Shown: positions 8,796-57,435 of the stretch, in pieces
How the letters are laid out: each line of letters starts with the position of its first letter
Position numbering within the stretch: the stretch's first letter is position 1
IMG/VR virus record: IMGVR_UViG_3300028534_000019
Location: 31,091-95,090 of that record
DNA from: a virus
Taxonomy: Duplodnaviria > Heunggongvirae > Uroviricota > Caudoviricetes
Length of the DNA stretch: 64,000 nt
Strand: one strand, 5' to 3'
The notes under the pieces: generated by a model
What the model was told of the DNA's origin: nothing
The model's input: only the letters and a program-made list of their open reading frames with translations
Databases searched by the model: none
Made by a program: the position numbers and the translations under genes

Positions 8796-9316
8796 TGGTT
8801 TTAAATTTTTATGGCGGGCCGGGTATTGGTAAAAGTACAAAAGCATCAGAGTTATTTTTTAGATGTAAACAACAAAACTTACAGGTTGAATTAATACACG
8901 AGTTTGCTAAAGATATGGTTTATTCTCAATCTATGGAAATATTGAAAGACCAATATTATGTAGGTGCTAATCAACATCATAGGGTGTGGAGAGTTCATAA
9001 CTATTACTTACAACAAGGTTTTAAAGAGGATGAATTTCTTATAATAACTGATAGTCCTATTTTGTTGGGTGCGGCTTATACTGATGATGATAAATTAAGA
9101 GATTTTATTTTTGAAACTTCAGAAAGATATAATAATATTAATATTATGCTAACAAGAAAATTTAATTACCAAGAAGAGGGAAGAAACCAAGATTTAAAAG
9201 GTGCTATTGAGATTGATAAAAAAGTTTTAGATTTATTAAATAAAACTTCTTATATAGAAACAAATGATACAGATAAAATTTTATCTCTAATTAAGGAAAA
9301 AATGAGTACAATATAA
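8795..9316 (+). CDS. P-loop NTPase (kinase/ATPase-like)
   Basis: Walker A motif FYGGPGIGKST at the N-terminus, and IITDSP as a possible Walker B. Confidence 0.6.
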   Translation: MVLNFYGGPGIGKSTKASELFFRCKQQNLQVELIHEFAKDMVYSQSMEILKDQYYVGANQHHRVWRVHNYYLQQGFKEDEFLIITDSPILLGAAYTDDDKLRDFIFETSERYNNINIMLTRKFNYQEEGRNQDLKGAIEIDKKVLDLLNKTSYIETNDTDKILSLIKEKMSTI

Positions 9317-9335
9317 ATATTAAAAAGGAGATAAA

Positions 9336-9914
9336 ATGACACTTGAAACATTTGCTGTTGAGTATAATAACTTAAAAATAGAAAAAGTATATATAAATTC
9401 ACACACATTAGAATCAGTAAAAAAAAGATTTAATATAGATTTAAAAATATCAGACCTAAAATCTGATATTTCTTTATCTATTGCTTTTCAAAAATATAAA
9501 AAGAATTTTACAGTAAATGATTTTAAGTTTGTTATCTTTATAAATGATATTGTACTTGTATTAAATATATATGAAAAAAATAATAAGTTTTATGGTAAAG
9601 TACTAACAGCATTATCACAAAAACAATTTGAATTAAGCAAAAATTTTTATCTTGGTAGTATTTTTGGTAATTTTGAGTGTACTATAAAAGAATATGCTTA
9701 TGAAGAAGTTTATTTTAATAATAGTTTTGAAAATATAAAAAAATCACTAAATGATTACAAACAATTACCAATATCACTAGATATTGCAACAAGTGATAGT
9801 GATATTAAAAGATTGAGAAAAGCAAACAGAACTGTTGATGTACCTTATATAAAAGGTTATTTTATAAAAGTTGTTGATGGTATTGATTATCTTATTATAG
9901 GTAGTAAAAAATAA
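9336..9914 (+). CDS. Hypothetical protein
   Basis: 192-codon ORF with AAAGGAG RBS. Confidence 0.6.
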   Translation: MTLETFAVEYNNLKIEKVYINSHTLESVKKRFNIDLKISDLKSDISLSIAFQKYKKNFTVNDFKFVIFINDIVLVLNIYEKNNKFYGKVLTALSQKQFELSKNFYLGSIFGNFECTIKEYAYEEVYFNNSFENIKKSLNDYKQLPISLDIATSDSDIKRLRKANRTVDVPYIKGYFIKVVDGIDYLIIGSKK

Positions 9915-9931
9915 GTATATGGAGGGTTAAT

Positions 9932-10387
9932 ATGAATAAACAAAAGTTTTATTTTAATAGTGAACATTTTGAATATGCTATTAATGACATTAAAAATAGA
10001 GTCCTATTGAATGTTAAAAAAGATGGTTTACAGATTGTTTCAGTGTTTAAGGATGGTTTACCTTTGGGTGTAAGGTTATCAAATGAATTTAATACAGGGT
10101 TGAGTATTATAAATTATGAAAAGTTTAGCTCAAATTCTGATAGTGTAACATTGCTTAAAGATGATGGTTTAAGAGGTGCTACAAATATATTAATTGTAAG
10201 TGACTTAGTACAAGATAAAAAGGGTTTTGAAAAAATTGTAAAATATATTAAAGAAAAATATGATAAAGAACCTATTATATACACTTTATTTGGTGACCCT
10301 TTGGAAAATAATACTAGATGGAATTTTACATTTAAAGAAAATGGACAGAAAATTCAATTCATTCCTTGGGTTGGAATGGATGTATAA
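9932..10387 (+). CDS. Hypothetical protein (weak phosphoribosyltransferase-like pattern)
   Basis: IVSVFKDGLPLGVRLS and NILIVSDLVQDKKG resemble the PRTase Rossmann and PRPP loops, but the canonical D-x-T-G-x-T is absent. Confidence 0.3.
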   Translation: MNKQKFYFNSEHFEYAINDIKNRVLLNVKKDGLQIVSVFKDGLPLGVRLSNEFNTGLSIINYEKFSSNSDSVTLLKDDGLRGATNILIVSDLVQDKKGFEKIVKYIKEKYDKEPIIYTLFGDPLENNTRWNFTFKENGQKIQFIPWVGMDV

Positions 10388-10411
10388 ATAATTCTAAAAT
10401 AGGAGAAAGAA

Positions 10412-10999
10412 ATGAAAAAATTTAGTGAATATATGAGTGAAAAAGCACTTGTAGAAGAAATGGAAGATAAGATAGGTTTAATGTTATATATGGCAGAAAA
10501 AAGTGATATTATAGCTGAATCTTATGATTTTGAAAATTTAACAGAAAGCCAAAGAATTGTACTTGAAGAAGGTGTAAATGATTGGTTAAACAAAGTTGGT
10601 CTTAAATTACATAAAACAAAAGGTATTATTGATTATTTAGCTGATTTTACTAAAGGTACAGGTAAAGTTCTTATGTCAGCAATTAAAGGTGATAAAGAGG
10701 CTGTTAAAGAACAACTTAAAAATGTTAAAAAAGAAGAAGTTTTAGATTTCTTACTTAAATTAGATATGGCTACATTACATATTGTTACCGGCCCGATACA
10801 CTTAATTGATGCTGTTACAGGTTGGGATTTAATGGCTAATGTTAAAGCAGTAGCTAAAACAGCAACTGATAAACTTAAAGAATTTTATCAAGCAATGAAA
10901 AAAGTAAAAGAAACAATTACAACTGTTTTACAAGGTACTAAACAAAAGAAAATGTTACAATTAGCAACAAACTTAGAAACAACAATTCCTGCACCTTAG
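10412..10999 (+). CDS. Hypothetical protein
   Basis: 195-codon ORF with GGAGAAAG RBS. Confidence 0.6.
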   Translation: MKKFSEYMSEKALVEEMEDKIGLMLYMAEKSDIIAESYDFENLTESQRIVLEEGVNDWLNKVGLKLHKTKGIIDYLADFTKGTGKVLMSAIKGDKEAVKEQLKNVKKEEVLDFLLKLDMATLHIVTGPIHLIDAVTGWDLMANVKAVAKTATDKLKEFYQAMKKVKETITTVLQGTKQKKMLQLATNLETTIPAP

Positions 11000-11019
11000 A
11001 ACAAAAAAAAGGATTTTAA

Positions 11020-11538
11020 ATGCCAAAATTTGGTAAAAGAAGTAAAAGAAACTTAGAAACTTGTCATAGAGATTTAAGAATTATATGTAATGAAGCAATT
11101 AAATATTTTGATTTTTCTGTTATATATGGTATAAGAAGTGAAGAAGAACAATTTAAACTTTTTAATGAAGGCAAATCTCAACTTGATGGTATCCATAAAA
11201 AATCAAAACACCAAGGCAGAAAGTGTGAAAAACTTGATGCTGGTGTAGATGAAGAACACAAAATTTTAACAGATGAAGATGGTGATGCTATTGCTTCTTT
11301 TGCTGTTGATTTAATGCCTTACTATAAAGGTTTCAATCCTTTTACAAATGAGTCAGGAACTAAACTTTTTTATTACCAAGCAGGATTAATAATGGGGATA
11401 GCCGCTAGACTTTATGAAGAGGGAAAAATAAAACATACTTTAAGATGGGGTGGAAATTGGGATAATGATATGGACTTTTTCGGAGATTCTCATTTCTTTG
11501 ATTTACCACACTTTGAATTAGTAATACCTAAAAAATAG
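11020..11538 (+). CDS. Peptidase M15-family cell-wall hydrolase (putative endolysin)
   Basis: SKHQ...AVDLMPY...DLPHFEL gives the H...D...H zinc-ligand pattern of M15 peptidases. YGIRSEEEQFKLF is also typical of the family. Confidence 0.65.
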   Translation: MPKFGKRSKRNLETCHRDLRIICNEAIKYFDFSVIYGIRSEEEQFKLFNEGKSQLDGIHKKSKHQGRKCEKLDAGVDEEHKILTDEDGDAIASFAVDLMPYYKGFNPFTNESGTKLFYYQAGLIMGIAARLYEEGKIKHTLRWGGNWDNDMDFFGDSHFFDLPHFELVIPKK

Positions 11539-11547
11539 GGTATTACT

Positions 11548-11664
11548 ATGAAGATATTTAAAAAAATTATTTTATCTATGATTATAAGTTTAAGCCTTTT
11601 TGTTTTTGACCCTTATAAACTTAACAGGTTAAGAGATTATCATAAAATTGAAAACACAAAATAA
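11548..11664 (+). CDS. 38-aa membrane peptide (possible lysis accessory; below the ORF-track cutoff)
   Basis: MKIFKKIILSMIISLSLFVFDPYKLNRLRDYHKIENTK*, lying 10 nt after the M15 peptidase stop. Confidence 0.35.
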   Translation: MKIFKKIILSMIISLSLFVFDPYKLNRLRDYHKIENTK

Positions 11665-11715
11665 CCTTAAAGACTTATAAAACTTACAATAACCTTACAA
11701 CACTACATAAAGTAT

Positions 11716-11723
11716 TATAAATA
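11716..11723 (+). promoter_or_regulatory. T4-type late promoter box TATAAATA
   Basis: Exact TATAAATA 19 nt upstream of the nuclease-terminase operon ATG at 11742. Confidence 0.45.
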
Positions 11724-11741
11724 ATTATAAAAGGATTTATA

Positions 11742-12089
11742 ATGCTTTATACTTACAGAATTAAAAAAATACACAAAATATATGATGGTGATACAATTAC
11801 AGCAGAACTTGATTTAGGATTTAAGATTTCATTTATTGAAAAGATTAGATTGTCTTTTATTGATGCTCCTGAAATAAGAGGGGAAGAAAGAGAAGAAGGA
11901 TTAAAATCAAGATTATGGTTAGTAGAACATTTAAACTCAGCTATATCTAAAGGTGATGATGTTTTTGTTAGAACAAATAAAGATAGCCAAGGTAAATATG
12001 GAAGATATTTAGGGGATATTATAATTAATGGGGAGTCACTTAATCTAAAGATGGTTGAAGAGGGTTATGCTGAACTTTATAAAAAGTAA
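11742..12089 (+). CDS. Staphylococcal-nuclease (SNase/thermonuclease)-like nuclease
   Basis: YDGDTIT, RLSFIDAPE, GKYGRYLGDI and MVEEGYAELY match SNase-fold signatures. Confidence 0.7.
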   Translation: MLYTYRIKKIHKIYDGDTITAELDLGFKISFIEKIRLSFIDAPEIRGEEREEGLKSRLWLVEHLNSAISKGDDVFVRTNKDSQGKYGRYLGDIIINGESLNLKMVEEGYAELYKK

Positions 12090-12099
12090 AGGTTTTATT

Positions 12100-13872
12100 A
12101 TGGAAGGAATATTTAATAAATTAAAAGAACATAATAAAGATGTTGTACTTAGTGATGAAGAGAAAAATAAAGTTTTAAGTGTTATAGATATAGAGAAAAA
12201 TAAAGAGGGTTTATATGTAGATGCCTTTGGTATGCCTATATCGCATAATGGGTTAAGAGATTTAAAAAAAGAGAAAACACAAATAAATCTTTCAGAAACA
12301 TTAATAAATGAAATTAAAACATCATATTTAGATTATTATTATTTTAGAGAAAATTATTGTAAAATTGTTACTAAAAAAGGTATTAAAAGACCTGAGCCAA
12401 GACCATACCAAAAAAGGTTAGAAGATGATTTAGTAACAGGTGAAGATGTTTTAGCATTTTGGCCGAGACAATCAGGAAAATCTGTAACTATTTCAACTTA
12501 TCTATTATGGAAAGCAATTACAACACCTAATATTAATATTGGTATAGCGGCAAATGTTCAAAAATTAGCTATGGAAGTATTAGACAAAATAAAAAATATA
12601 TTTTTGGAGTTACCTATTTGGATGAAGCCGGGTATAAAGGTTTGGAATAAAGGTTCTATTGAATTTGAAAATGGTACAAGAATTTTAACCTCAGCAACTA
12701 ATGGTGATGCTTTTAGGGGGTTTACTATTAATATATTATATGTTGATGAGGTTGCTTTTATTAGACATAGTGTGTGGGAAGAATTTGCTGATTCTGTTTT
12801 CCCTGCTCAAGAAGCACTTATGGAAAAACAAACTATTATGTCAAGTACGGCTGGTGGGCTTAATCATTGGTATCATTTAGTAGAGGGTGCTAGAAAGGGT
12901 AAAAATGGTTATAGAATAGCTGAAGCAAGTTGGAAAGAAGTTCCTAGATGGAAAAAAGATGGTACTCTTAAAACACCTGATGAATTTAAGGCTGAAATAA
13001 TAGCTAAAAATGGAGAGATGTTTTTCCAACAAAATTTTGGTAACTCTTTTTTAGGTAGTTCTAAAACTTTAATAGATTCACAAGCATTAAAAAATATTGA
13101 ACCTATGGATGATGATGAAATTTTGTTTGATAATGTTTTTAATGGACTAAGAATTTTTAAAGAGCCAAAACCTAATCATAATTATATAGTTACTTGTGAC
13201 CCCAAAAAAGAGGGTTTGGATAGTGCTGGATTACAAGTTGTTGATGTTACAAATTTACCTTTTGAACAAGTAGCATCAGCACAATTACACGAGAGTTATT
13301 TAACAATTCCTGGTAAATTAAATGATTTAGGGTTGTATTATAATAAGGCTATGATAGTATGTGAAAATAATGTAGCTGAGTCTATACCTAGTACTGTATA
13401 TTATAATTATGAATATGAGGGTGAAGTCTTTATAGAAAAAGATAGTAAGGGTCGCCCTAAAAAGGAAATGGGCATTAGGACAACTACCAAAACAAAAAGA
13501 TTAGGTTTAACTCTATTAAAGAAATTTGTAGAGAATGGAAACCTAATAATAAATGATACAAAAACATTAGATGAATTATTTAACTTCATTGAATATAAAG
13601 ATGGTATATATAAAGCAGAAGAGGGTTATCACGATGACCTTGTTATGTCATTAATGCTTGTTTTTGCTCCATTTTTAGATTTTAAAAACTTTGATGATTT
13701 TAGAGGTTTTGTTGATTATCTTGATAAAAAAGAAAAACAACAAGAAGAGAATGATAAAGAGATGGAAGAATTTATGGATTTAGGTTTTAGTTCTGATGAT
13801 GATTTGGAAGATGACGGGCCGTTTACTAAGGATATTTGGGGAAATAGAGATATGGTTGGTGGCTTCATATAA
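12100..13872 (+). CDS. 17: Terminase large subunit (T4 gp17-like)
   Basis: Walker A FWPRQSGKSVT. WNKGSIEFENGTRILTSATNGDAFRGFTINILYVDEVAFI parallels the T4 gp17 block, and the C-terminal nuclease region has YHDDLVMSL. The ATG at 12100 (after AAAGG) is preferred over 12055. Confidence 0.9.
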   Translation: MEGIFNKLKEHNKDVVLSDEEKNKVLSVIDIEKNKEGLYVDAFGMPISHNGLRDLKKEKTQINLSETLINEIKTSYLDYYYFRENYCKIVTKKGIKRPEPRPYQKRLEDDLVTGEDVLAFWPRQSGKSVTISTYLLWKAITTPNINIGIAANVQKLAMEVLDKIKNIFLELPIWMKPGIKVWNKGSIEFENGTRILTSATNGDAFRGFTINILYVDEVAFIRHSVWEEFADSVFPAQEALMEKQTIMSSTAGGLNHWYHLVEGARKGKNGYRIAEASWKEVPRWKKDGTLKTPDEFKAEIIAKNGEMFFQQNFGNSFLGSSKTLIDSQALKNIEPMDDDEILFDNVFNGLRIFKEPKPNHNYIVTCDPKKEGLDSAGLQVVDVTNLPFEQVASAQLHESYLTIPGKLNDLGLYYNKAMIVCENNVAESIPSTVYYNYEYEGEVFIEKDSKGRPKKEMGIRTTTKTKRLGLTLLKKFVENGNLIINDTKTLDELFNFIEYKDGIYKAEEGYHDDLVMSLMLVFAPFLDFKNFDDFRGFVDYLDKKEKQQEENDKEMEEFMDLGFSSDDDLEDDGPFTKDIWGNRDMVGGFI

Positions 13873-13875
13873 AAA

Positions 13876-13897: not shown

Positions 13898-13925
13898 AAA
13901 ATCTATTAAAAATAAAAGGTTATAT

Positions 13926-14552: not shown

Positions 14553-14574
14553 TAATCTCTATAATAGAAAATCA

Positions 14575-16601: not shown

Positions 16602-17051
16602 ATGATATATTCAAATAATAAAAAAGTAAAACACGACTATGAAATAATTGAAACATTTGAGGCAGGTGTTGTTTTGAGCGGTCCGCAAGTAAAATCAATT
16701 AGAAAAGGTTCTTTAAGCCTTAAAGGTTCTTATGTTAGTCTTGATGATGGTGTTTTATCATTAAAACAATACTCACTTGCTAGACCTGATTATTTGGATG
16801 CTTTTAGTTCTTTTGATGATAAACCAATAAAATTTTTACTCAAAAAAAGAGAGATTAAAAAATTACAAAAAAAGATTCAAGAAAAAGGTTTAACATTATC
16901 TATAACAAAAGTTTATCAACCTGAAAATACTAGATTTATTAAGGCTGAGTTAGTTCTTGTGAGAGGTAAAAAACTATATGATAAAAGAGAAGATTTAAAA
17001 AAGAAAACACAAGAAATGGATATGAAAAAGGCTATAAAATATGATAGATAA
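16602..17051 (+). CDS. smpB: SmpB (tmRNA-binding protein)
   Basis: NNKKVKHDYEIIETFEAGVVLSGPQVKSIRKGSLSLKGSYV matches the conserved SmpB N-terminal block (NKKA.HDY.I...EAGI.L.G.EVKS.R). Size is 149 aa with a basic C-terminal tail. Confidence 0.9.
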   Translation: MIYSNNKKVKHDYEIIETFEAGVVLSGPQVKSIRKGSLSLKGSYVSLDDGVLSLKQYSLARPDYLDAFSSFDDKPIKFLLKKREIKKLQKKIQEKGLTLSITKVYQPENTRFIKAELVLVRGKKLYDKREDLKKKTQEMDMKKAIKYDR

Positions 17052-17250
17052 TCTAAAAAGTGCTGATGAAATATATTTAGTAGTACAGTTTGGAGCAAAA
17101 GATTTTAACAATAGAACACAAGAATTGATTGATGAAAATTATATTCCATTTAGTGATGTTGCTGTTCAAAGTTTTCACGATGAATTTTGCTTTTCACAAC
17201 AGTTTATAAAAAATCCAAAATACATAGAAGAAACAAAAAGGAAAATATAA
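17041..17250 (+). CDS. Hypothetical protein
   Basis: 69-codon ORF overlapping the smpB end by 11 nt. Confidence 0.45.
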   Translation: MIDNLKSADEIYLVVQFGAKDFNNRTQELIDENYIPFSDVAVQSFHDEFCFSQQFIKNPKYIEETKRKI

Positions 17251-18041
17251 TGTTAATAGTACCTGTTGGTTTGCCTGGTTCAGGAAAAACTGTTTTATCA
17301 AGAAAATTTAATACAGTTATAAATGCTGATGAATTGTTTAAGGATAATTATACATTAGATGATTTAATAAATTATATAAAAGAATATAATTATACAGTAA
17401 CAGATGTTTATTTGGATGGTTTATTTATTACAAGGAATTTAGTTAAGAAATTGATTGAAACTTTTGATTATTATATTAGATTAGTATATTTTAAACCTAA
17501 TATAGAAAATTGTATCTACAATGATTTATCAAGAAATAGAGAAAAAGATAGTGTTAATATAATTTATGGTTCTGATTTAAGTTTTATGAAAGAAAGTTAT
17601 TTTAGAAATAAAATAAGAGAAACAATGGAAGTATATAAGGCTGATTATGTAGAATATATAAAAGAAGAAAATAACTTTCAAAATTATATAGAAACACAAG
17701 AGTATGTCTTAGAAGGAAGTACATATGGTACTTGTTGGGATGAAGACGGCCCGTCTGAAACAACACCTGATGACCCATACCATTTTACTGATTTTACAGA
17801 ACTTGAAAAGATATTTAAAAAAATGAATATTCCTTATACAGAAGAAAATTATAATAAAATTGAAAGTGTTATAGAAGAAGAAGATAGAAGTGAGGGTGAT
17901 TATTATGGTGGTTATGCTTATAAAGAGGTTTATAGAGTTGAAGTTACATTATTAATAAAAGCAATACTAAAAGAGTTTTTTGGTATTGATAAAACAGATA
18001 TGGCATATATTAAAAAAGAATACCCTGAACTAATATTTTAA
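17250..18041 (+). CDS. P-loop kinase-like protein (polynucleotide-kinase-like N-terminus) with C-terminal YPELIF motif
   Basis: MLIVPVGLPGSGKT is a Walker A at the extreme N-terminus, as in T4 Pnk-type kinases. The ATG at 17250 overlaps the previous stop (TAATG). Ends ...IKKEYPELIF*. Confidence 0.55.
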   Translation: MLIVPVGLPGSGKTVLSRKFNTVINADELFKDNYTLDDLINYIKEYNYTVTDVYLDGLFITRNLVKKLIETFDYYIRLVYFKPNIENCIYNDLSRNREKDSVNIIYGSDLSFMKESYFRNKIRETMEVYKADYVEYIKEENNFQNYIETQEYVLEGSTYGTCWDEDGPSETTPDDPYHFTDFTELEKIFKKMNIPYTEENYNKIESVIEEEDRSEGDYYGGYAYKEVYRVEVTLLIKAILKEFFGIDKTDMAYIKKEYPELIF

Positions 18042-18639: not shown

Positions 18640-20490
18640 ATGGCAGTTATTGGTATAGATTTAGGAACGACAAATAGTGCTGTTTCAGTTTATGAAGTAG
18701 GGGAATTTAAAATTATTCCTAATGCTGAGGGTAAAAATACAACACCTAGTATTGTAGCATTTACAGATAAAGGGGATGTATTAGTAGGGGAATCAGCAAA
18801 AAGACAAGCAGTCACAAACCCTGAAAAAACTATTGAAGCAATTAAAAGAATTATGGGTATGCAATTTAATGAACCTAGATGTAAAGAGGCTCAAGAAAAA
18901 GTACAATATAAAATTGTAGATAAAAATGGTTTGGCCGCTGTTGATGTTGATGGTAAGATTTATACACCACAAGAAATTTCAGCTAAAATCCTTACAAAAC
19001 TAAAAGATGATGCAGAAGCATTTATTGGTAAAGAAGTTACAGATGCTGTAATTACAGTTCCAGCATACTTTAATGATGCTCAGAGAAAGGCGACACAAGA
19101 GGCAGGCGTTATTGCAGGGCTTAATGTACTAAGAATTATTAATGAACCTACTTCGGCCGCTCTTGCTTATGGTTTGGACAAAAAAGGTGAGGAAAATATT
19201 CTTGTTTATGATTTTGGTGGTGGTACTTTTGATGTATCTGTATTAGAAATTGGAGATGGTACTTTTGAAGTTCTTTCAACTGATGGTAATGCTTTCTTAG
19301 GTGGTAAAGACTTTGACCAAATTTTAGTTAATTATATTGCTGAATATTTTAAAGAGAAACAGGGTGTTGATTTAAGAAATGATAAAATGGCACTTCAAAG
19401 ATTATATGATGCTTCAGAAAATGCTAAAAAAGAGTTATCAAGTGTTGTAGAAACTGAAATTAACTTACCATTTATTACTATGACAGAAGCCGGCCCGCAG
19501 CATCTTGTTTTAAAAATTTCAAGAGGTAAATTTGAGGGGTTAGTACAAAATCTTGTAGATGAAACTATTGAACATATTACAACAGCATTACAAGACGCTG
19601 GTTTAAGTGTAGATGATATTAGTGAATTGATTATGGTTGGTGGCTCAACAAGAATACCTTTAGTACAAGAGGCAGTTTCAAAGTATTTTAAAGGTAAAAC
19701 TCTTAATAAATCTGTTAATCCTGATGAAGTTGTAGCCGCTGGTGCTTCAATTCAAGGTGGTGTATTAACAGGAGATGTAAAAGATGTTCTTCTTCTTGAT
19801 GTTACACCATTATCACTTGGTATTGAAACTATGGGTGGTATTGCTACTAAAATCATCCCAAAAGGTACAACTATTCCTGTTAAAAAATCAGAAATCTTTA
19901 GTACAGCAGTTGATAATCAACCAGCAGTTAGTATTGTAGTAGTACAAGGTGAAGCAAAATTAGCAGAAGATAATAAATCTTTAGGACAATTTAATCTTGA
20001 GGGTATAACACCAGCTAAAAAAGGTGTACCACAAATTGAAGTTAATTTTGATGTTGATTCTAATGGTGTTTTGAGTGTATCAGCTATTGATAAAGGAACA
20101 GGTAAAGAACAGAAAATAACAATTACAGGTTCGACAGGTTTAAGTGAAGAAGAAATTAGAAAGATGATTGATGATGCTGAAAAACAAAATCAAGAAAAGG
20201 CTGAAAAAATTAAAGCAATTGAAGCAAAAAATGAATTGGATGCTACTCTTTCAAGAATTAAAAACTTTAATGATGAAGAAAAAAATGAAGTGCTATCAGC
20301 TAAAATTTCTGATGTTGAAGAATATGTAAAAGAAGATAGAACAGCAGAAGAAATTAGAAAAATTAGAGATGAACTTGAAGAAGTTTATTTAAAAGCATTT
20401 GAAGAGAAATCAAAAAGAAATGAAGGTGCTGAGGTAAAAGAAAGCACTGAAAATAATGATGATGTTATTGATGCTGAAATTGAAGAATAA
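18640..20490 (+). CDS. dnaK: Hsp70 chaperone DnaK (canonical bacterial type)
   Basis: [69 protein letters not shown], and an acidic tail [10 protein letters not shown]. Confidence 0.95.
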
Positions 20491-30909: not shown

Positions 30910-31217
30910 TGTCAAAGCAATGGCTTAGTGAATTAATAGAACAGCCATATGAATGGTGTATTGAAACTGTTACAAAAGAGCCTGAATTACTAAAAAATAT
31001 AAAAGTACAAACACAAGAACTTTGTGAAATAGCATTTTATGAAGATTATAAAACAGCAAAATATATACATCAAGAATTTAGATTTAATGAGAGAATTTTA
31101 GCTATTGCTCGACAGCATAGTTTATTAAATAAAAGCATACCACAAGATATGCTTGAAAAAATAAATGAATATCCATATAATTACTTTGAAAAGAAATATC
31201 CTGAAATCTTTTTCTAA
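30909..31217 (+). CDS. Hypothetical protein with tandem C-terminal motif (EYPYNYF then KYPEIFF)
   Basis: Ends ...KINEYPYNYFEKKYPEIFF*. Confidence 0.55.
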   Translation: MSKQWLSELIEQPYEWCIETVTKEPELLKNIKVQTQELCEIAFYEDYKTAKYIHQEFRFNERILAIARQHSLLNKSIPQDMLEKINEYPYNYFEKKYPEIFF

Positions 31218-43497: not shown

Positions 43498-43989
43498 GTG
43501 AAAAAATATGATAATGTGTTAATGATTAATGCTAAATCTTGGGCAAAACAGAGTTACTGTAATAGAAAAAAAGTAGGTGCTGTTTTAGCCAAAGATGGTA
43601 GGATTTTAGCAACAGGTTATAATGGTACTATCTCAGGTACTGAAAATTGTTGTGAAGAAAAATGTGATGTTTGTAATGGTACAGGTAGGTCATATTTAGA
43701 TGATGAAGAATATTGTCCTAGATGTAATGGTGGTGGTAAAATTACAAATGATTTTACATTACACGCTGAACAAAATATAATTACATTTTGTGCTAAAGAA
43801 GGAATACCAACAAAAGATACTACGATTTACATTACTCTAAGCCCTTGTAAAACTTGTGCTAAATTAATTGCTCAAAGTGGTATTAAAAGAGTTGTGTATA
43901 ATGAACAATATAGAGATACATCAGGTGTTGATTTTCTTAAAAATCTTGGAATACAATGTGAACAACATAATACAAAAGGAAAAGAATGA
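43498..43989 (+). CDS. dCMP deaminase (ComEB/Cd family) with an extra Cys-rich insert
   Basis: GYNG...HAEQNII (HAE) and LSPCKTCAKLI (PCxxC). The insert is CCEEKCDVCNGTGRSYLDDEEYCPRCNGGGK. GTG start. Confidence 0.85.
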   Translation: MKKYDNVLMINAKSWAKQSYCNRKKVGAVLAKDGRILATGYNGTISGTENCCEEKCDVCNGTGRSYLDDEEYCPRCNGGGKITNDFTLHAEQNIITFCAKEGIPTKDTTIYITLSPCKTCAKLIAQSGIKRVVYNEQYRDTSGVDFLKNLGIQCEQHNTKGKE

Positions 43990-44579
43990 AAAAAACATTA
44001 ACAGGTACTAGTTTAGCTGGTGGAAGTGTAAATTATGATAGAGTAGAAAATGATTTTTATGCTACTGATAAGAATAGTACTAGAGGTTTATTGGATATAC
44101 ATAATATAGAATCTGATAGTTTTTATGAACCTTGTGTTGGTCAAGGGCATATAGTTGAAGTTCTTAAAGAATATTTTCCAAATGCTGAATATACTTATAG
44201 TGATTTAGTTGATAGAGGTTATGAAAATACACAAATTTTTGATTATCTAAATACTGAAACAGATATTAAAGCAGATTGGATAATCACTAATCCACCTTAT
44301 AAATTAGCAAAAGAATTTATTTCAAAAAGTTTAACACAAGCTAATAAAGGTGTGGCAATGTTTCTTAAAATCCAATTTTTAGAAGGACAAGCTAGAAAAG
44401 AATGGTTTAAAAACACACCATTAAAATATGTATATGTTTTTAGTAAAAGACAAGACCCTTTAAGAGATGGAATGGAATTAAATCCAAAAACAGGTAAAAA
44501 ATGGGGTAGCACTATGTGTTTTGCTTGGTTTGTATGGGAGATTGGATATGAGGGTGAACCAATTATTAGGTGGATATAA
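43986..44579 (+). CDS. DNA methyltransferase (NPPY motif; probably N6-adenine), no adjacent endonuclease seen
   Basis: Motif I-like YEPCVGQGHIV and motif IV DWIITNPPY. Confidence 0.7.
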   Translation: MKKTLTGTSLAGGSVNYDRVENDFYATDKNSTRGLLDIHNIESDSFYEPCVGQGHIVEVLKEYFPNAEYTYSDLVDRGYENTQIFDYLNTETDIKADWIITNPPYKLAKEFISKSLTQANKGVAMFLKIQFLEGQARKEWFKNTPLKYVYVFSKRQDPLRDGMELNPKTGKKWGSTMCFAWFVWEIGYEGEPIIRWI

Positions 44580-46289: not shown

Positions 46290-46814
46290 TTACATTTTAA
46301 TCCAGTGAGTAAATGCAAAATCAACAGTAAACTCAGTTACCATATCATTACTTTCATCAGCCATATCAATAGAACTGATATTAGTCGGCCAAAGGTTTCT
46401 AAATTGATAAGTAAGTTTTACACTATTATCTCTTGTATCTAATTGTTGAATTTGTGCTGTTTCAGTCATATAAGAAGCATTAGTAGTAACTTTTCTTTTA
46501 TGATTTTCCATATCATCAATAAATACCAACCAATCATCAAATAATTTTCTTAATTCGTGGTCTTGTGTGTTGTAAAATGTTAAAGACCAAGTATTTTCAT
46601 AAGCCGCATCACCTGCAATTATAAGTTTTCTACCTTGTGTCCAAACCTCAATTTGCCCAATAGATTTAGCTGGTATCGGCCCGCCCTTACAAAGAGTATC
46701 TATCTTTTTATCATCTTTTGGTCCGACAGGAGCCGCCAACATAACTCTATATTTATTTGCTCTTGCACCTAAACCAAGAGTACTTTTTAATTCTTGTACT
46801 TTACTAGAAGCCAT
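46290..46814 (-). CDS. 19: Tail tube protein (T4 gp19-like), paralogue 1
   Basis: GARANKYRV, FDDWLVF and NLWPTNISSIDMADESNDMVTEFTVDFAFTHW parallel T4 gp19 ...GLWPTNVGELQLDWDSNNEIQTFEVTLALDYWE. Confidence 0.85.
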   Translation of the reverse strand: MASSKVQELKSTLGLGARANKYRVMLAAPVGPKDDKKIDTLCKGGPIPAKSIGQIEVWTQGRKLIIAGDAAYENTWSLTFYNTQDHELRKLFDDWLVFIDDMENHKRKVTTNASYMTETAQIQQLDTRDNSVKLTYQFRNLWPTNISSIDMADESNDMVTEFTVDFAFTHWIKM

Positions 46815-46886: not shown

Positions 46887-47399
46887 TCAATCCCAATGTG
46901 AATAATTAAATGTAACAGTAAACTCTAACAACCCTTCTGTATCATCACTATAAGTAGATTCAGATAATGCTTTAGGATATAAATCATATATTGTATATGT
47001 AGCCATTGGTGAGTTATCTTTTGTGCTTAATTGTTGTAAAACAGCATCAGTCATATAACTTGGTGCTGATGAAGCACTTCTATTATTTGTATTAAAATCA
47101 TCTATAAAATTCATCCAAGCTAAAAATGCTTTTCTTAATGTATGCTGTTCTGTATCAACAAATGTTAAATCCCAAGTTCCTGTAAAAAGTGTTTCACCAG
47201 CGATAGTTAATTTTTTACCTTGTACATATACTTCTACATCAGCAAATTCTTTACCAGGAATATTAGCACCTTTAACTAATGTATTAACTATATTATTACC
47301 CGGCCCGCCACCTTTTGAATTAAGAATTAGTTTATATCTATTTGACCTAGCACCTATACCAAGTGTATTTTTTAGATTTTGAATTGTACTATTTGCCAT
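46887..47399 (-). CDS. 19: Tail tube protein (gp19-like), paralogue 2
   Basis: Clearly alignable to paralogue 1 (MANSTIQNLKNTLGIGARSNRYKL..., ...DLYPKALSESTYSDDTEGLLEFTVTFNYSHWD). Confidence 0.85.
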   Translation of the reverse strand: MANSTIQNLKNTLGIGARSNRYKLILNSKGGGPGNNIVNTLVKGANIPGKEFADVEVYVQGKKLTIAGETLFTGTWDLTFVDTEQHTLRKAFLAWMNFIDDFNTNNRSASSAPSYMTDAVLQQLSTKDNSPMATYTIYDLYPKALSESTYSDDTEGLLEFTVTFNYSHWD

Positions 47400-47410: not shown

Positions 47411-47923
47411 TTAAAATGTTTCAATATATGATGCTTTGGCTGTTATACTAAATTCAGCTATTGAAGCACCAGCACTATTATCTAAAGTCGGCCCGCCTAC
47501 TGTAACTAAAATACAATCTTTGAATTTAATAATATCTTGAAAGGTATTAATATCAAAGTCAGTGGCAGTTTGAACTAATATATCAAACCTTTGGTTTTTA
47601 GGGTATTCTCTTGAAAATTTTTGTGAAGCACTTGACCACATTCTATATAGTGTAAAATTTTCTAAATCTTTCATAGTAACAGTAACTTGAAAATTTTCTA
47701 ATCTACCCACTGCAAATCTCCATTCCTCAGCTACCCATTCCTCAATAGGTGATGAATTAACCTCAGCTAACTGTATATTAGTTATAGCGGCCGTCAGTGT
47801 ATCAGGGTCAACTGTAATAGCACCAGCGGCTGTTCCACCTGTTGGTAATATCATAACCTTAAATTTAGAGGGGTCTTGCCATCTAATAGACTTAGCAAGT
47901 TGTATAGGTGCTGATAAAGCCAT
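47411..47923 (-). CDS. Divergent tail-tube-fold protein, paralogue 3 (tube or tube-initiator-like)
   Basis: Same size and position as the tube genes. Starts MALSAP..., using the third in-frame ATG, which is preceded by GGAG. Shares a weak FKV...W...F.VTV pattern. Confidence 0.5.
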   Translation of the reverse strand: MALSAPIQLAKSIRWQDPSKFKVMILPTGGTAAGAITVDPDTLTAAITNIQLAEVNSSPIEEWVAEEWRFAVGRLENFQVTVTMKDLENFTLYRMWSSASQKFSREYPKNQRFDILVQTATDFDINTFQDIIKFKDCILVTVGGPTLDNSAGASIAEFSITAKASYIETF

Positions 47924-47937
47924 AAGCATCTCCATAT

Positions 47938-48819: not shown

Positions 48820-48822
48820 AAT

Positions 48823-49692: not shown

Positions 49693-52600
49693 ATGAGTGC
49701 TAACAAAAGAACTAATAAAAGAAAAACTTTTAAAAAACCTACATTAATAACTTTACCAAAAATAAAAGGTAGTGATTATAGAAATAAAGATAATTATGAA
49801 GAACCTAATGGTTTTAAAGAAAAAAAATCTAAACCATCATCTTTATTTGCTAAAATGGCTCAAGATTTAGCTAAGGTTAAAAAAGAGAATGAAGAATTAA
49901 ATAATAAACTTGAAAAAATTTATGAAGTTCAAAAAAACTCTAATGCTCAGATAATCAAAAACCAACAACAAAGTATAGATATACAGCACGACCAAATGGA
50001 ACAACAAAGAGAGGCTGAATATAAAAAAGAACATTCTTATGCTAAAAAAGTAAAAGAAAAAATAGTTTATATTAAAGAAAAAACTAAAGATTCTTTATCA
50101 AATGCTGGTGGAAAAATCAAGAATGGTTTTAATAAAGTAAAACAGAAAACATCAGGTTTTTTTGATTTTATAAAGAAAGCAGCGGGAATAGCATTATTTT
50201 TAAAACTTTTTTGGCCGGTGATTAAAAAGAAAGTGATACCTTATGTTAAAGATACACTAATACCTCAAATTAAAGATTTTTTAAATAATAAAGTAATACC
50301 ATTTTTTAAAGATACTGTAATACCCGGCTTAGAGAAATTTTTCAAAGATACACTTTGGCCGATGATAAAAAACAATTTTGGTGATATTTTAAAAGGGTTA
50401 GGTATAACAGCATTTTTGTTAAATCCTGTTAAATTTATAACAACAGCAATAAAATTGGCTTTTAAAACTACTTTTTTTGGAATTAAACAAATAGTAAAAT
50501 TATTACCTAAACTAGCAGGTTTTTTAAAATCACCAGCAAAATATTTAGCAACAAAAGGGTTAGATTTAGCTAAACAAGGTGCTACTAAGGTTTCTGATTT
50601 AGCTAAACAAGGTGCTACTAAGGTTTCTGATTTAGCTAAACAAGGTGCTACTAAGGTTTCTGATTTAGCTAGAGATGGAGTTGATGCTGTTTCTGATTTT
50701 ACAAAAAATGATAGTATAAGTGATATGGCTGAAAATGGTTATGATAAATTAAAAGACTCTAAAGGAAGTGGTGGTTTATTAGAAAAAATTAATAAAAAAA
50801 TTGATTCTATGAAAGAAAAAATAACAAAAATTTCAGGGTCTTTGATAGATAAAGGAATTGGTTTAGCTAAAAAATTACCATCAAGTTTTGGTGCCGCACT
50901 GAAAATGTTAAAACCACTAGCAAAACTTATTCCATTTTTAGGAACAGCATTAATGGTGTGGGATGTTATAGATTTATTTTTCCCTAATTTAACAAGTAAA
51001 CTCACAGAATTTTTTAGTTGGAAGAATATTAAAGAAATGGCTTCAAGTATATGGGAAAAAGTTAAAGAAGTATTTGGTAGTGTTTCTAAATGGATAAGTG
51101 ATAAATTTAGTGGTATAATTTCAAGTGTAAGAAAAATGGTAGGTAAATTATTTTTAATGAGTCCTATGACTGCATTGTTACCTGATTCTATTAAGAAAAA
51201 AGTATATAATTTTATTGTAGGAGATGATAAAGAAGCTAAAAAAGAAGAAAAATCTTCAGCTATGTTTAAAAAAGGTTATGCTAATGATGATTGGGGTGAT
51301 AATAGTATAAATGAACAAAAGATTAAAAAAGATTTAAAAACAGGTAAAATTAATATTAAAGATTTAGAAGCATTGTTACAATATGGGAATTTAGATGAAG
51401 ATGAACAAGATAAATTAAAGAAAATAATTTCTTCTAATACTAAAACTAAAAAAACTAAAAAAACTTTAGGTAATGTTTCATCTATTAGTAATACTACTGA
51501 TGTTAAAAAACCTCTAACAAAAGAACAAAAACAAGATAATTATATTAAATCTATGGATGCCCAAATTGGAGCATTTACAAAAACAAGAGATAAAATTAAA
51601 ACAGCACTTGATAATAAAGATTTAAGTCCTAAGAAAAGAAAAGGTTTAGAGAAAGCATTATCTTATTATGATACACTTATCAAGAAGAAACAAGAAAAGA
51701 AACAAAGTTTAGTAAAACATAAAAAACATAAAAAACCTACAAGAACATCAGAATCATCATATATGATGGCTGATGGGAAAGGTGGGAAAGTTCCAATAAC
51801 TAAAGAGCAACACGACAGAATGGATGCCATTCAAAATAAAATTTCTGTTGCTTTTGATGGTGGAAACAGTGAAGAAATAGATAAATTACTTAAAGAACAA
51901 GAAGATTTAAGAGCAACAATAATTAAAGAAGGATTTAAACCTTCACAAAGTATAAGTATTTCTAATACTTCTAGTAGTTCTAGTACAACAAATAATTCTT
52001 TTGGTAATGTTAGTAATGTTAGTAATGTAGGTAATACTTTTTTATCAGCAAAACCTAATACTGCTCAAAGTGTAGCAAATCCAAGTGAGTCTGAAACACC
52101 AAAAACAGATGGTTTTTTTACTTCTCAAATGAAACCTAGTTTTGATACAAAACCAAAAGATGTAAGTACAAGTGGTTTTAATCAATCACAAAGTAATGAT
52201 TTAGATGATAAAGAAAGAAAACAATTAAAAATGGAAAAAATACCTGCTAAAAAAATATTCAAATTAACAGGTAGTGCTTCAAGTGGTGGTTTTGAAAAAA
52301 TGAATAAATCATTACAACATAATGTTAAATTATTTGGTATGGAATATGCTGAAAAAACAGGAGAAAAACTAACTATTAATTCAGCATATAGAAGTGTTAA
52401 ATTACAAAAAAAATTATTTGAAAATAAGAAAAAAGAAGTAAGAAAAAAACACCCTGAATGGTCAGATAGTCAAGTTCTTAGGGAAACAAGAAGATGGGTA
52501 GCACCTCCAGGGAGAAGCGCACACAATTCAGGTTTAGCAATTGATATAGGTTATCAAAATAGAAAATCTCCATCAATGGATAAAGCAGATAGATTAGGTT

Positions 52601-53952: not shown

Positions 53953-53975
53953 ATAATTTAAAAAGGTATTAATTT

Positions 53976-54686
53976 ATGATTTATCCATTAAATTTATTTA
54001 CACCAGACCCTATAACAAATAGCCTTAGACCATTTATGATGTTCTCAGCAAAAGAAGTCAATTTTAATGCTATGAGGGCTAAATCGTGGTCTGATGCTAA
54101 GGAAACATTATCAACAAAAATGATATTTGCTTTACCTATACCAAATACAGGTATTATGGATTCATTCCAAAATGAATATGGCAGTGAACCATCAGTTGGT
54201 GGTTTACTTGCTCAGAAAGCCCAAGATACTTTTAATGCACTTCCGGGTGCCGCTGGAATTTCATCAGCATCAGCAAGATTAGGCTTTGTTGCCGACCCTA
54301 AATATACTCAACTATACAAAGGTTCTTCACCTAGAAGTTGGAGTGGTACTTGGCAAATTGTTCCTGAATCATTAGGAGAATCACTTGTTGCTCATATGAT
54401 GTTAAGAGCAATTAAATATTGTGCCGCACCTGATAAAAAATCTGATGCTAGTAATAAAATAGGTGTATTAATACAGCCTTATGTTTTTTCAATAACAATT
54501 TCTAATCCTTTAATAGATAGAGCAGTAAAATTTGATAAAATGGTGATGAAATCTTATGATATTACTTATTATGCTCAAGGTTATGCTAGTTCTTATAAAG
54601 ATATGTTTCCAAAACAAATATCTTTATCATTAAAATTTGAAGAATTTGGAATTAAAACTAGAAAAGATTGGGGAAAACCTTTCTAA
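53976..54686 (+). CDS. Tail/baseplate protein (possibly a gp48/gp54-like tube cap or initiator)
   Basis: Positioned directly after the tape measure. FALPIPNTGIMDSFQNEYGSE is a weak resemblance only. Confidence 0.4.
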   Translation: MIYPLNLFTPDPITNSLRPFMMFSAKEVNFNAMRAKSWSDAKETLSTKMIFALPIPNTGIMDSFQNEYGSEPSVGGLLAQKAQDTFNALPGAAGISSASARLGFVADPKYTQLYKGSSPRSWSGTWQIVPESLGESLVAHMMLRAIKYCAAPDKKSDASNKIGVLIQPYVFSITISNPLIDRAVKFDKMVMKSYDITYYAQGYASSYKDMFPKQISLSLKFEEFGIKTRKDWGKPF

Positions 54687-54706
54687 TAAGAGAGTAAGGA
54701 AAAATA

Positions 54707-55216
54707 ATGAAAAATAAATATTTAGAATTTGATAATATGGATTTTATTGATAACAAACAAGTTAAGAATTTCACAAGGTTATCTTATTTACCTGATTTAC
54801 CTAAAGATTTTTGGGATAATTTTACATTTGATACATATTTAGTTGATGATGATGAATATATAGAAGGTATATCTTGGAGATTATATGAAACTACTGATTA
54901 TTGGGATGTATTAATGTTTCTAAATGGTATAACAAATTTTTATGATTTACCTAAAAATTTCAATGTTGTTGTAGAAAGAACTATGTCAAAAGTTGATAAA
55001 TGGAATCAGTTCTCAAATAAAAAGTTATCAGAAGAAGAAAAAGAGAAAAAATATAAAGAGTTATTAGATAAAGAAAATGAAAAAAATGAAAGATTTAGAC
55101 ATATTAAATATCTTACACCAAGTGGGTTATCTGATTTAGAACATTATTTAGATACATTTAAAGGTAAACCAAAAATATTACCTAACTTAATAATAAATCC
55201 ACCACAAGAAAACTAA
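54707..55216 (+). CDS. Hypothetical baseplate-cluster protein
   Basis: 169-codon ORF within the baseplate operon. Confidence 0.55.
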   Translation: MKNKYLEFDNMDFIDNKQVKNFTRLSYLPDLPKDFWDNFTFDTYLVDDDEYIEGISWRLYETTDYWDVLMFLNGITNFYDLPKNFNVVVERTMSKVDKWNQFSNKKLSEEEKEKKYKELLDKENEKNERFRHIKYLTPSGLSDLEHYLDTFKGKPKILPNLIINPPQEN

Positions 55217-55243
55217 ATATCTAAATATACTAAAGGAGTATAA

Positions 55244-56353
55244 ATGGGTTATAATATAGGGGTACAATCAAACCATTTTAAAGAATTTTCTTTAACAATA
55301 GATGGTATTAAGATAGTAGAAGAACAAATAATATCACTTATGATAAATTGGGATATTAATCACTTTAAAATAACAGGTTCTCTTAGTTGGAAAGATGGAA
55401 GTTGTATGGTAGAAGAAACACCGATTAGAGGTGGTAATACAGTAGTAATTAATATGACTGATTTTGATGGGGCTTCATATTCAGGGAACTTTAAAGTCTT
55501 AAATACAAATTATGAAAGAAGCACAGATTTTTATATAAGTACAATATCTTTTATTGATACAGAAAGTTTTAACATTTTAAAACTTTATCCAACAAAGTCT
55601 TGGCTTCAAGCAACTATGGTACAAATAATTGATGATGCCAAGACAGCAAAACCTTTCTTAACTTCAAAAGGTAAAGAATTTAATGACCCTGGTTTAATGC
55701 ACGAGAATTTTGTTGTGCCTCAAAATAAAAACTTTTATTGGACAATAGAGTGGTTAAAACAAAGAAATAATAGGTTAATGTTTCAAAATAGAGAGAAATA
55801 TATTATTGATGATTTTAATACATTAATAAACAAAGGTGTTAAAGGTAAGCCATATTATTTTAAAGCAAATAATGCTTCATATAAAAGAAATGTTTATGAA
55901 TATAGTGTAAAAAATTCAGATTTTATTAAGAATATAGCAACTATGCCAAATGTAGAATTTCCTTATTTTAATGTTGATTACAAACATAAACAACAAACAA
56001 AAGGCTCATATGCAGATGCTTCAGGTGCTATTGGTGGGCAAGGTACATTAAATGATTTTAGTTCAAATGGGGATAAATTTAGTTTTATATCAAATACAAA
56101 TTTTGAAGAAACTAAAGATTTTTATTTTCAGAAAAATGCTTTATCTAACTTAGTTGTAGAAATATTAGTTCCTGGGCAATGTAAAACAAATTTAGGTGAT
56201 GTAGTATGTTTAGAATTTGATAATTTATTTGAGGGAAAAGGTCCGGAAAAGAATATTAAAGGTAAATTTCTAATTGTAGGATTAACAGATATTTTTCAAA
56301 ATCCTGAATATTTACAAAAATTAACATTAGCAAGACCAAAATGGTTTAAATAA
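55244..56353 (+). CDS. Baseplate hub protein (gp27 / gpD-like), tentative
   Basis: Size and position immediately upstream of the gp5-like spike. AAAGGAG RBS. Confidence 0.5.
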   Translation: MGYNIGVQSNHFKEFSLTIDGIKIVEEQIISLMINWDINHFKITGSLSWKDGSCMVEETPIRGGNTVVINMTDFDGASYSGNFKVLNTNYERSTDFYISTISFIDTESFNILKLYPTKSWLQATMVQIIDDAKTAKPFLTSKGKEFNDPGLMHENFVVPQNKNFYWTIEWLKQRNNRLMFQNREKYIIDDFNTLINKGVKGKPYYFKANNASYKRNVYEYSVKNSDFIKNIATMPNVEFPYFNVDYKHKQQTKGSYADASGAIGGQGTLNDFSSNGDKFSFISNTNFEETKDFYFQKNALSNLVVEILVPGQCKTNLGDVVCLEFDNLFEGKGPEKNIKGKFLIVGLTDIFQNPEYLQKLTLARPKWFK

Positions 56354-56364
56354 AGGGATATTAA

Positions 56365-57435
56365 ATGAATGATATAATGTATAATAAGAGTAATTTAAAC
56401 TCAACTAAAATTTTTTATAGAGCAGTAATAGAAAATAGAGTTGACCCTAAAAAACTTGGTAGATGTCAAGTTAGAATATTAGGAATACACTCCGAAGAAG
56501 CCACAGGAGATAAAGTTCCAAAGGAGAACCTACCTTGGGCTGAGTTGATAGGAAGCAACGGTTATAACGGAGGTATGAGTGGTATAGGTATTAGTGCTGT
56601 ACCTGAGCAAGGTTCTTGGGTATGGGTATTCTTAGAAGATGGTGATTGGAATAAACCTATTATAGTAGGTACAATATATGGTATATCATCAATGTTAAGC
56701 CCCGGCACTAACCCCGGTTTTCACGACCCTGATGTACAATTTCCTTATGCTGATAGACTTAATGAGCCTGATTTTAATAGATTAGCAAGAAATGAAAAAG
56801 TAAATGAAACAATAATTATTACAATCAAGGATGCTAATAGAGATAAATCAATACCAACATCAACTGGTAAATTATGGGATGAATTGAAAGAAACTACTAC
56901 TTTAGCAGAATACCCAAATAATAGAGTGATAGAAACAAGACACCATTCTTATATAGAACTTGATGATACTGATGGTAATGAAAGATACCATTATATTCAT
57001 AAAACAGGAACTTATAGAGAAATAGTAGAAACAGGTGATGAAACAAACAAAGTAATAAGAGATAAGTACCTAATAGTTGATAGAAATCTTAAAGAATTAA
57101 TAAAGGGTAATATGTGGACTACTGTTTATGGTGATAATGAAGATTATGTACAAGGTTATAGAGAGATACTTGTTTCAGATTATCAACACGAAATAGTTGA
57201 AAAACATCTTAAAGAAGAATATATGGACTATAAAGAAGAAGATGTGCATAAATATCTAAAAGAGCATTATCATAGCACCAAAGATGAAACAGTTGATGGT
57301 ATGCTAACAGAGAAATATAATAGTACAAAAACAGAAACAGTGTCAGGTTTAGTAAGTGAGAGTTATAATTCAGGACAAACAACAGATGGCGGGCCGTTTA
57401 TACAAATAACAGCAGGTGTTATAACTCTTAACTAA
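56365..57435 (+). CDS. 5: Baseplate central spike (gp5 / gpV-like OB-fold plus beta-helix), no lysozyme domain
   Basis: FYRAVIENRVDPKKLGRCQVRILGIH...LPWAELIG...VPEQGSWVWVFLEDGDWNKPIIVGTIYG. The C-terminus has 8-residue-type repeats (KDETVDGMLTEKYNSTKTETVSGLVSESY). Confidence 0.85.
   Translation: MNDIMYNKSNLNSTKIFYRAVIENRVDPKKLGRCQVRILGIHSEEATGDKVPKENLPWAELIGSNGYNGGMSGIGISAVPEQGSWVWVFLEDGDWNKPIIVGTIYGISSMLSPGTNPGFHDPDVQFPYADRLNEPDFNRLARNEKVNETIIITIKDANRDKSIPTSTGKLWDELKETTTLAEYPNNRVIETRHHSYIELDDTDGNERYHYIHKTGTYREIVETGDETNKVIRDKYLIVDRNLKELIKGNMWTTVYGDNEDYVQGYREILVSDYQHEIVEKHLKEEYMDYKEEDVHKYLKEHYHSTKDETVDGMLTEKYNSTKTETVSGLVSESYNSGQTTDGGPFIQITAGVITLN

Follow-up and report, generated by a model that had tools for sequence, protein, structure and literature searches.

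CGGNCCG at the Gly-Pro codon pairs of an AT-rich T4-like phage: probable camouflage of unavoidable restriction cores by silent recoding

The palindromic heptamer CGGNCCG recurs at Gly-Pro codon pairs throughout a 64,000-nucleotide stretch of tailed-phage DNA (IMG/VR record IMGVR_UViG_3300028534_000019, positions 31,091 to 95,090), which was analysed over its whole length and is referred to here as the window. The stretch derives from one phage genome, seen in three assemblies of a single sample (SRR8439170 / ERZ27262685). The phage is an uncultured T4-like myovirus, with a terminase ~40% identical to the terminases of Vibrio KVP40-like phages and of the Campylobacter CP220 group, and with T4-type genes for gp32, gp15, a gp19-like tail tube protein, gp5, gp25 and gp6. 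SmpB, a transfer-messenger RNA (tmRNA), two Hsp70 proteins, a ClpP-like protease, SIR2, a dCMP deaminase and a MazG-like protein are also encoded, the standard genetic code is used, and an endolysin gene is present. A megablast search against GenBank phages gave zero matches, and no terminase relatives were found in IMG/VR. In total, 74 long open reading frames (ORFs) were called, with 7,989 bases (~8 kb) falling outside them. The G+C content is 26%, lower than the ~30% given in an earlier note made from the sequence alone, and the coding strand carries a strong purine excess.

The earlier note had listed 11 copies of CGGNCCG against an expectation of less than one. All 11 were found at the positions given, compared to 0.02 expected from shuffles preserving dinucleotides. 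On the plus strand, CGGGCCG at 8815–8821, read as GGC GGG CCG (Gly-Gly-Pro), falls within the Walker-A loop encoded by ORF 8795–9316 (a P-loop protein, AAA_28), and CGGCCCG at 10789–10795 encodes ACC GGC CCG (Thr-Gly-Pro) in the conserved HIVTGPIH motif of ORF 10412–10999. CGGGCCG at 13815–13821 (GAC GGG CCG) lies close to the C-terminus of the large terminase, followed by CGGTCCG at 16679–16685 (AGC GGT CCG) in SmpB, CGGCCCG at 17747–17753 (GAC GGC CCG) in ORF 17187–18041, CGGCCCG at 19491–19497 (GCC GGC CCG) in DnaK/Hsp70, CGGACCG at 41232–41238 (ACC GGA CCG) in the second Hsp70, and CGGGCCG at 57390–57396 (GGC GGG CCG) in the gp5-like baseplate hub protein. On the minus strand, the sense codons GGC GGG CCG occur at 46677–46683 in the gp19-like tail tube protein (ORF 46290–46814), at 47301–47307 in ORF 46887–47399, and at 47489–47495 in ORF 47411–47935. 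The gene labels assigned previously (Hsp70 twice, SmpB, terminase, gp19-like tail tube protein and gp5) hold. The nine-mer GGC GGG CCG (Gly-Gly-Pro) is common to five of the 11 sites (8815, 46677, 47301, 47489 and 57390), and Gly is over-represented ahead of Gly-Pro (5/13). The known enzymes RsrII/CpoI (CGGWCCG) share the 7-bp frame, and the sites at 16679 and 41232, with their A/T centres, are true RsrII sites. As the earlier note anticipated, RsrII covers only these two of the 11; at the remaining nine the central base is G or C, where RsrII requires A or T. In addition, the word is enriched in the window rather than avoided, and recognition of seven base pairs would not predict the half-sites described below (TGGCCG and AGGTCCG).

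The window holds 13 GGNCC words, which are exactly its 13 in-frame Gly-Pro pairs, and 11 of these are written NNC-GGN-CCG. We refer to a GGNCC or GGCC core as dressed where the flanking base forms a CpG with it. Both remaining pairs are half-dressed. AGGTCCG at 56239–56245 (+), encoding AAA GGT CCG, keeps the 3′ CpG and lacks the 5′ C because lysine has no C-ending codon. The pair at 46719–46725 (−), sense GTC GGA CCA (TGGTCCG on the plus strand), has the 5′ C, and its 3′ flank is the sole undressed free flank. These two exceptions had been identified correctly, although the first was placed at 56249 through a ten-base slip. Taken over the window, 24 of the 25 silently changeable flanks of GGNCC make a CpG with the core, and 11 of the 13 sites have the outer C of GGNCC within a CpG on each of the two strands, the remaining two on one strand. 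The wobble base preceding Gly is C at 12/12 Gly-Pro pairs compared to 21/697 elsewhere (P = 1e-17), and Pro is CCG at 12/13 compared to 13/504 (P = 1e-16), bearing out the previous description of a rare proline codon combined with a rare wobble C. The Gly codon itself is GGS (S, G or C) at 9/13 pairs compared to 98/924 elsewhere (P = 1e-6). This enrichment in G and C is confined to the 7 bp, the adjacent codons being ordinary and A/T-ending; regional G/C-rich patches or gene transfer are ruled out as a source, given that the enrichment ends at 7 bp. Pooled synonymous-codon shuffles (n = 1000), keeping the proteins and the overall codon usage, yielded a mean of 0.03 CGGNCCG and a maximum of 1, so that the shuffle by which the earlier note had proposed to refute its own claim leaves the claim standing. 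Chance or artefact as the origin of the pattern is excluded by these statistics and by the changes being in-frame and strictly silent.

To what the heptamer responds is indicated by the positions where it could have been written. Of the positions convertible to CGGNCCG by silent change in the Gly-Pro frame, 11/12 carry the motif, compared to 0/48 in the two other frames, which include Arg-Pro-Asp and Ala-Asp-Arg (Fisher P = 3.5e-11). None occurs in the 7,989 non-coding bases. Together, the empty frames and the empty non-coding sequence indicate that CGGNCCG is a response to an unavoidable GGNCC core and not a wanted word. The same rule extends to Trp-Pro pairs, for which only the 3′ side is free to vary: all six are written TGG-CCG, at 4733–4738 (+; TGGCCG), at 12460, 27121, 50212 and 50356, and at 46386 (−; CGGCCA on the plus strand). 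More broadly, a Pro codon following GG is CCG in 12/12 cases, and each of the 18 GGCC words in the window is flanked by CpG on at least one side. CGGCCG, with CpG on both sides of a GGCC core, was observed twice compared to 0.05 expected, at 19154–19159 (+; TCG GCC GCT) and at 47788. The TGG-CCG rule, together with the 3′ CpG retained at Lys-Gly-Pro, points to recognition of a CpG or CCG half-site instead of the whole heptamer. Flanks form CpG at 92% for GGNCC and 56% for GGCC, compared to 0–4% for GTAC, GANTC, GTNAC and GCNGC, with a baseline probability of G after C of 3%. GGNNCC is depleted without systematic dressing, and the flanks of CCNGG and GCNGC are undressed. Selection thus acts on the DNA word, independently on each flank, and conditionally on an unavoidable GG(N)CC core. 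The proposal that a DNA word and not tRNA use alone is under selection is therefore sustained: the silent C appears before Gly only when Pro comes next, the CpG rule reaches Trp-Pro, and the pattern is missing at the orthologous sites of related phages.

These relatives comprise ~47 contigs, namely 45 metagenome loci recovered via the terminase (38–65% identity) and the two closest relatives (72–73% terminase identity). None of the ~47 contigs contains a dressed Gly-Pro. The default state among them is GGWCC with A/T flanks, with GCWGC and CCWGG dominant. In the HIVTGPIH motif, for example, relatives have ACT GGT CCT, ACA GGA CCT or ACT GGA CCA, where the window has ACC GGC CCG. The A/T codons at orthologous Gly-Pro pairs indicate that dressing is derived and lineage-specific. 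Gly-Pro pairs are as frequent in the window as in the relatives, with observed/expected ratios of 0.49 and 0.48 (pooled relatives), respectively. Two of the three comparable pairs are not conserved in relatives, being Ser-Pro or Leu-Pro at the terminase site (13815) and Gly-Ala in SmpB. We also considered a purge of Gly-Pro that spared essential pairs only, in view of the 13 pairs observed and 26 expected by composition; this was rejected, as the ratio in relatives is equal (0.48) and two of three sites are unconserved.

The pattern stands in a genome from which nearly all silently removable palindromic targets have gone, and the phage is under very heavy restriction-modification pressure. Relative to codon shuffles, the window contains 0 CATG (63 expected), 0 GATC (99), 0 ACGT (21), 21 TGCA (146), 74 AGCT (200) and 8 TCGA (39). 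Among longer words, AAGCTT (17 expected), TCTAGA, GAATTC, CTATAG, GATATC, GTATAC and GTTAAC are all absent, compared to 8–17 expected each, and CTNNAG occurs 103 times compared to 202. The surviving AGCT words are nearly all TAGCTA, TAGCTG or CAGCTA, with no AAGCTT, GAGCTC or CAGCTG among them; AGCT seems to be spared chiefly where its flanks leave the 6-bp palindrome incomplete. CpG is depleted five-fold overall (symmetrised odds ratio 0.17), and CACG is in excess (44 compared to 17.8 expected) because His-Gxx needs CAC-G to escape CATG, showing that CpG is accepted by the phage when the alternative is worse. Many of the remaining CpGs are by-products of avoiding other words. By the classical measure of word depletion, CATG, GATC, ACGT, TGCA and AGCT qualify as avoided and GGNCC does not (13 compared to 15.3 expected, P = 0.10, codon shuffle).

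Interrupted pentamers show an additional shift in their centre base. For GCNGC, A/T centres number 2 compared to 22 expected and G/C centres 22 compared to 2; for CCNGG, the corresponding values are 10 compared to 23 and 14 compared to 2.6; and for GGNCC, 4 compared to 12.4 and 9 compared to 2.9. The recoded G/C-centred pairs are Ala-Ala (GCSGC; e.g. GCCGC at 11401, 18934 and 22626) and Pro-Gly (CCSGG; e.g. CCGGG at 3003, 12628 and 20952), and both words contain CpG. The recoding of Ala-Ala and Pro-Gly reflects either avoidance of A/T-centred targets or the introduction of CpG into the site. The G/C centre at GGNCC (9/13) is best read as a separate effect, namely avoidance of A/T-centred pentamers (AvaII-, TseI- and EcoRII-like).

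CGGNCCG is probably camouflage of restriction cores that could not be removed, a by-product of evasion and not a signal. GGNCC is irremovable at Gly-Pro (GGN-CCN), as GGCC is at Trp-Pro (TGG-CCN), and at such cores only, the free neighbours have become fixed as NNC before and CCG after, placing the outer C in a CpG on each strand. That the Gly-Pro pairs were left unpurged suggests that dressed sites are harmless. How dressing might confer protection is a narrower matter, for which we tentatively favour overlapping cytosine methylation, while giving it somewhat less than an even chance. We infer that a cytosine methyltransferase recognising CpG, or else a CCG half-site, would methylate the outer cytosines and so block a Sau96I/HaeIII-type endonuclease; the methyltransferase could be the host's or could be encoded by the phage outside the window. 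In CGGNCCG, the right CpG holds the outer C of the top strand and the left CpG that of the bottom strand. Since each flanking CpG protects one strand under this scheme, both flanks would come under selection. One such enzyme could cover all three unavoidable pentamers, since GCSGC and CCSGG also hold a CpG. In its strongest form, the phage exploits a CpG- or CCG-reading methyltransferase (the first CpG-type enzyme outside the Mollicutes, or an unrecognised phage enzyme) for whose cover every unavoidable Sau96I/HaeIII-type core has been silently recoded; we regard this as possible but doubtful.

Several observations weigh against this reading. First, ACGT is fully avoided, though protective CpG methylation might make its avoidance needless; it is plausible, if ad hoc, that the phage avoids words by preference and dresses them only as a second resort. 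Second, CpG methylation leaves the G/C centre of GGNCC unexplained, and a separate cause is needed. Third, the window encodes no CpG or 5-methylcytosine (m5C) methyltransferase, a six-frame scan for m5C methyltransferase motifs having returned none. Fourth, Mollicutes are the only prokaryotes from which CpG methyltransferases have been described to date (PMC9465063), and the host is probably not a Mollicute because the phage uses the standard genetic code and carries an endolysin. Finally, all of the evidence comes from one genome.

The sole methyltransferase gene in the window, at 43986–44579 (+), encodes a 197-residue protein with an NPPY motif, which matches phrog_799 at 4e-64 and neither a Pfam model nor a PDB sequence. 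Its AlphaFold model (predicted local distance difference test score, pLDDT, 84.6) has Dim1/KsgA, CamA and M.TaqI as top structural matches, and its predicted fold resembles those of adenine-N6 methyltransferases. The NPPY motif and the adenine-N6-like model, together with the lack of adenine at nine of the sites, led us to reject this protein as the cognate enzyme. Its homologues (>4,000 proteins) are widespread in Staphylococcus, Listeria, Streptococcus, Campylobacter CP220-group, Vibrio and E. coli phages. A Vsr-type motif is likewise missing from the window, so that neither of the genes for which the earlier note advised a search, a cognate methyltransferase or a Vsr-like gene, was found there.

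Comparison with known systems places the dressed sites beside classical restriction-site avoidance in phages (Rusinov et al. 2018, PMC6286503). Strains of Staphylococcus aureus possess Sau3AI (GATC) and Sau96I (GGNCC), and GGNCC is absent from all Rosenblumvirus phages (PMC6346686). In Staphylococcus phage K (KF766114, bases 1–100000), we counted 0 GATC, 0 GGNCC and 0 GGCC, and 0 Gly-Pro in ~25,000 codons compared to 49 expected by composition; GCNGC is nearly absent from the same 100 kb (3 sites). The selective agent and the genome-wide signature in these phages match those of the window. However, phage K removed the word together with the amino-acid pair, whereas the window phage keeps Gly-Pro and recodes its silent flanks. 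The retention of Gly-Pro with rewritten flanks suggests that the dressed site is effectively safe. A precedent for protection by overlap is provided by Sau96I, whose cleavage of GGGCCG is prevented when the second C carries CpG methylation (PMC6043853). CGGNCCG supplies this exact context, with the outer C in CpG on both strands, although the blocking concerns a commercial enzyme in vitro, and both nuclease and methyltransferase are putative for the window phage. Mycoplasma agalactiae carries GATC, GGNCC and GCNGC restriction-modification as well as a phase-variable orphan CpG methyltransferase (PMC9465063). The combination of enzymes needed can therefore exist in one AT-rich, CpG-depleted species, but M. 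agalactiae is a Mollicute, unlike the probable host of the window phage, and the tie is one of analogy only. Overlapping or multi-site cytosine methylation also protects GGCC-type sites in phages, the Bacillus phages SPR and phi3T carrying multispecific m5C methyltransferases. There the enzyme adapts to the sites, whereas in the window phage the direction of adaptation seems reversed, the sites being fitted to an enzyme. In the literature, we found no report of silent flank recoding at unavoidable restriction sites, and the only mention of CGGNCCG found there was as the motif of a fungal transcription factor.

The alternative that survives best dispenses with methylation and assigns the reading of flanks to the nuclease itself, which would spare GGNCC or GGCC cores flanked by C and G and cut them otherwise. 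We consider this fairly unlikely, whether the nuclease were the host's or the phage's own enzyme for degrading host DNA, with an effective target of GGNCCH per strand or with flank-dependent kinetics. It accounts for the same sequence facts as camouflage by methylation, and no undiscovered methyltransferase is needed. DGGNCCH is absent (13.5 expected) and GGNCCH occurs twice (28.7 expected); the reverse flanks, G before and C after, would be excluded as they create GGNNCC, which is itself avoided (4 compared to 13.4). Moreover, WGGCCW (HaeI-like) is absent compared to 10.4 expected, and its avoidance could account for Trp-Pro independently. However, a palindromic 7-bp target could be escaped by changing one flank, for which CCA or NNT would be cheaper, yet 11 of the 12 sites are dressed on both sides with a rare C and with CCG. 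In addition, two enzymes, one for GGNCC and one for GGCC, would need an identical flank rule, and we know of no enzyme with such flank-reading specificity.

A functional signal in the phage DNA, used for nicking, packaging, recombination or the phage's own modification and placed at Gly-Pro as the cheapest spot, is much less probable than a flank-reading nuclease. The extreme enrichment would suit a signal, and the lack of conservation at two of the three comparable Gly-Pro pairs would allow some sites to have been created. This suggestion from the earlier note fares poorly against the 0/48 convertible positions in other frames and the absence of the motif from ~8 kb of non-coding sequence. 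TGGCCG and the Lys-Gly-Pro half-site are left unexplained, relatives do not have the pattern, the spacing is irregular, and the sites fall in early-type and structural genes alike.

Translational causes are, if anything, slightly more remote. A codon-pair effect, or a programmed pause at Gly-Pro through rare CCG and C-ending codons, possibly linked to SmpB and tmRNA, would suit the single reading frame, the rare codons and the presence of SmpB, tmRNA and two Hsp70 proteins in the phage. However, any Gly-Pro pair must be written GGNCC under the genetic code, which fixes the frame and deprives it of independent weight as evidence; the word is also palindromic, so that its two strands are indistinguishable. 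Neither the dyad symmetry nor a wobble C found only before Gly-Pro (12/12 compared to 3%) is predicted by translation, and the same holds for the Trp-Pro rule. The sites occupy non-homologous positions in unrelated proteins, and orthologous sites in relatives do not have the pattern. A programmed pause, as previously proposed, thus leaves the 5′ wobble C, the Trp-Pro rule and the absence in relatives unaccounted for.

Equally improbable is a mutational bias, in which Vsr-type or GC-biased repair at a methylated site pushes the neighbours towards CGGNCCG: in E. coli, Vsr repair is known to distort the frequencies of words near CCWGG, but known repair biases are modest compared to a pattern that is near-complete at free flanks (24/25), all-or-none, absent elsewhere (0/48), halted at 7 bp and limited to the Gly-Pro frame, in a window without an m5C methyltransferase or Vsr-type motif. 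The earlier suggestion of a modification enzyme with a short-patch repair bias is consequently upheld in its link to modification, which fits, and not in its repair bias.

Camouflage of this kind would constitute a second mode of passive anti-restriction, in which an irremovable site keeps its amino acids while its silent neighbours are rewritten; textbook avoidance is usually measured as missing words. If overlapping methylation is the mechanism, phage sequences can become adapted to a methyltransferase of the host that the phages themselves lack, enriched words as well as missing ones may inform on host defences, and CpG-type methylation may exist beyond the Mollicutes. If the phage does exploit such a methyltransferase, a novel strategy against restriction, ‘methylation hitch-hiking by synonymous recoding’, would be legible from genome sequence, and host restriction-modification and methyltransferase repertoires could be inferred from phage codon-pair usage. 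The dressed codon pair is a signature that can be searched for in other phage genomes for prediction of hosts or defences. Should a flank-reading nuclease be responsible instead, the pattern would reveal an uncharacterised enzyme specificity.

Searches beyond the relatives were narrow in scope. A scan of IMG/VR for a dressed GPGxGK motif gave no systematic second case. In one IMG/VR record (IMGVR_UViG_3300022542_000121; L214), G follows five of six GGNCC words and CCWGG is absent, and in two other contigs (L260 and L262) both GGNCC sites are CGGNCCG. These three have 36–39% G+C and few sites, one per contig chosen by the search pattern, and provide weak hints. A similarly narrow search of species-representative genomes, aimed at a dressed EF-Tu DGPMPQT motif, was uninformative: the matches listed came from diverse bacteria and showed no systematic dressing.

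Coverage beyond the window extended to 8.7 kb on the upstream side and 1.5 kb on the downstream side. The first ~4.8 kb of ENA contig k141_205395, which starts 8.7 kb upstream of the window, differ in composition: CATG, GATC and ACGT are present, CpG is ~3× denser, a Gp23-like ORF is included, and three undressed GGNCC words occur (TGGTCCA, TGGACCT and TGGGCCA). Either the assembly is chimeric in this segment, or the segment is a module of recent acquisition that is still unadapted.

Some features of the gene content may also be recorded. The tmRNA gene at 39452–39772 (+), with the tag peptide ANNTDYTGNTVLSA, forms a complete trans-translation pair with SmpB (16602–17051, +), and a leftover TCGA (39467) and TGCA (39593) sit within it. 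Two full-length Hsp70/DnaK genes are present in this one phage, at 18640–20490 and 39844–41706. The SIR2 and DUF488 genes are adjacent, at 4884–5633 and 5621–6088, respectively.

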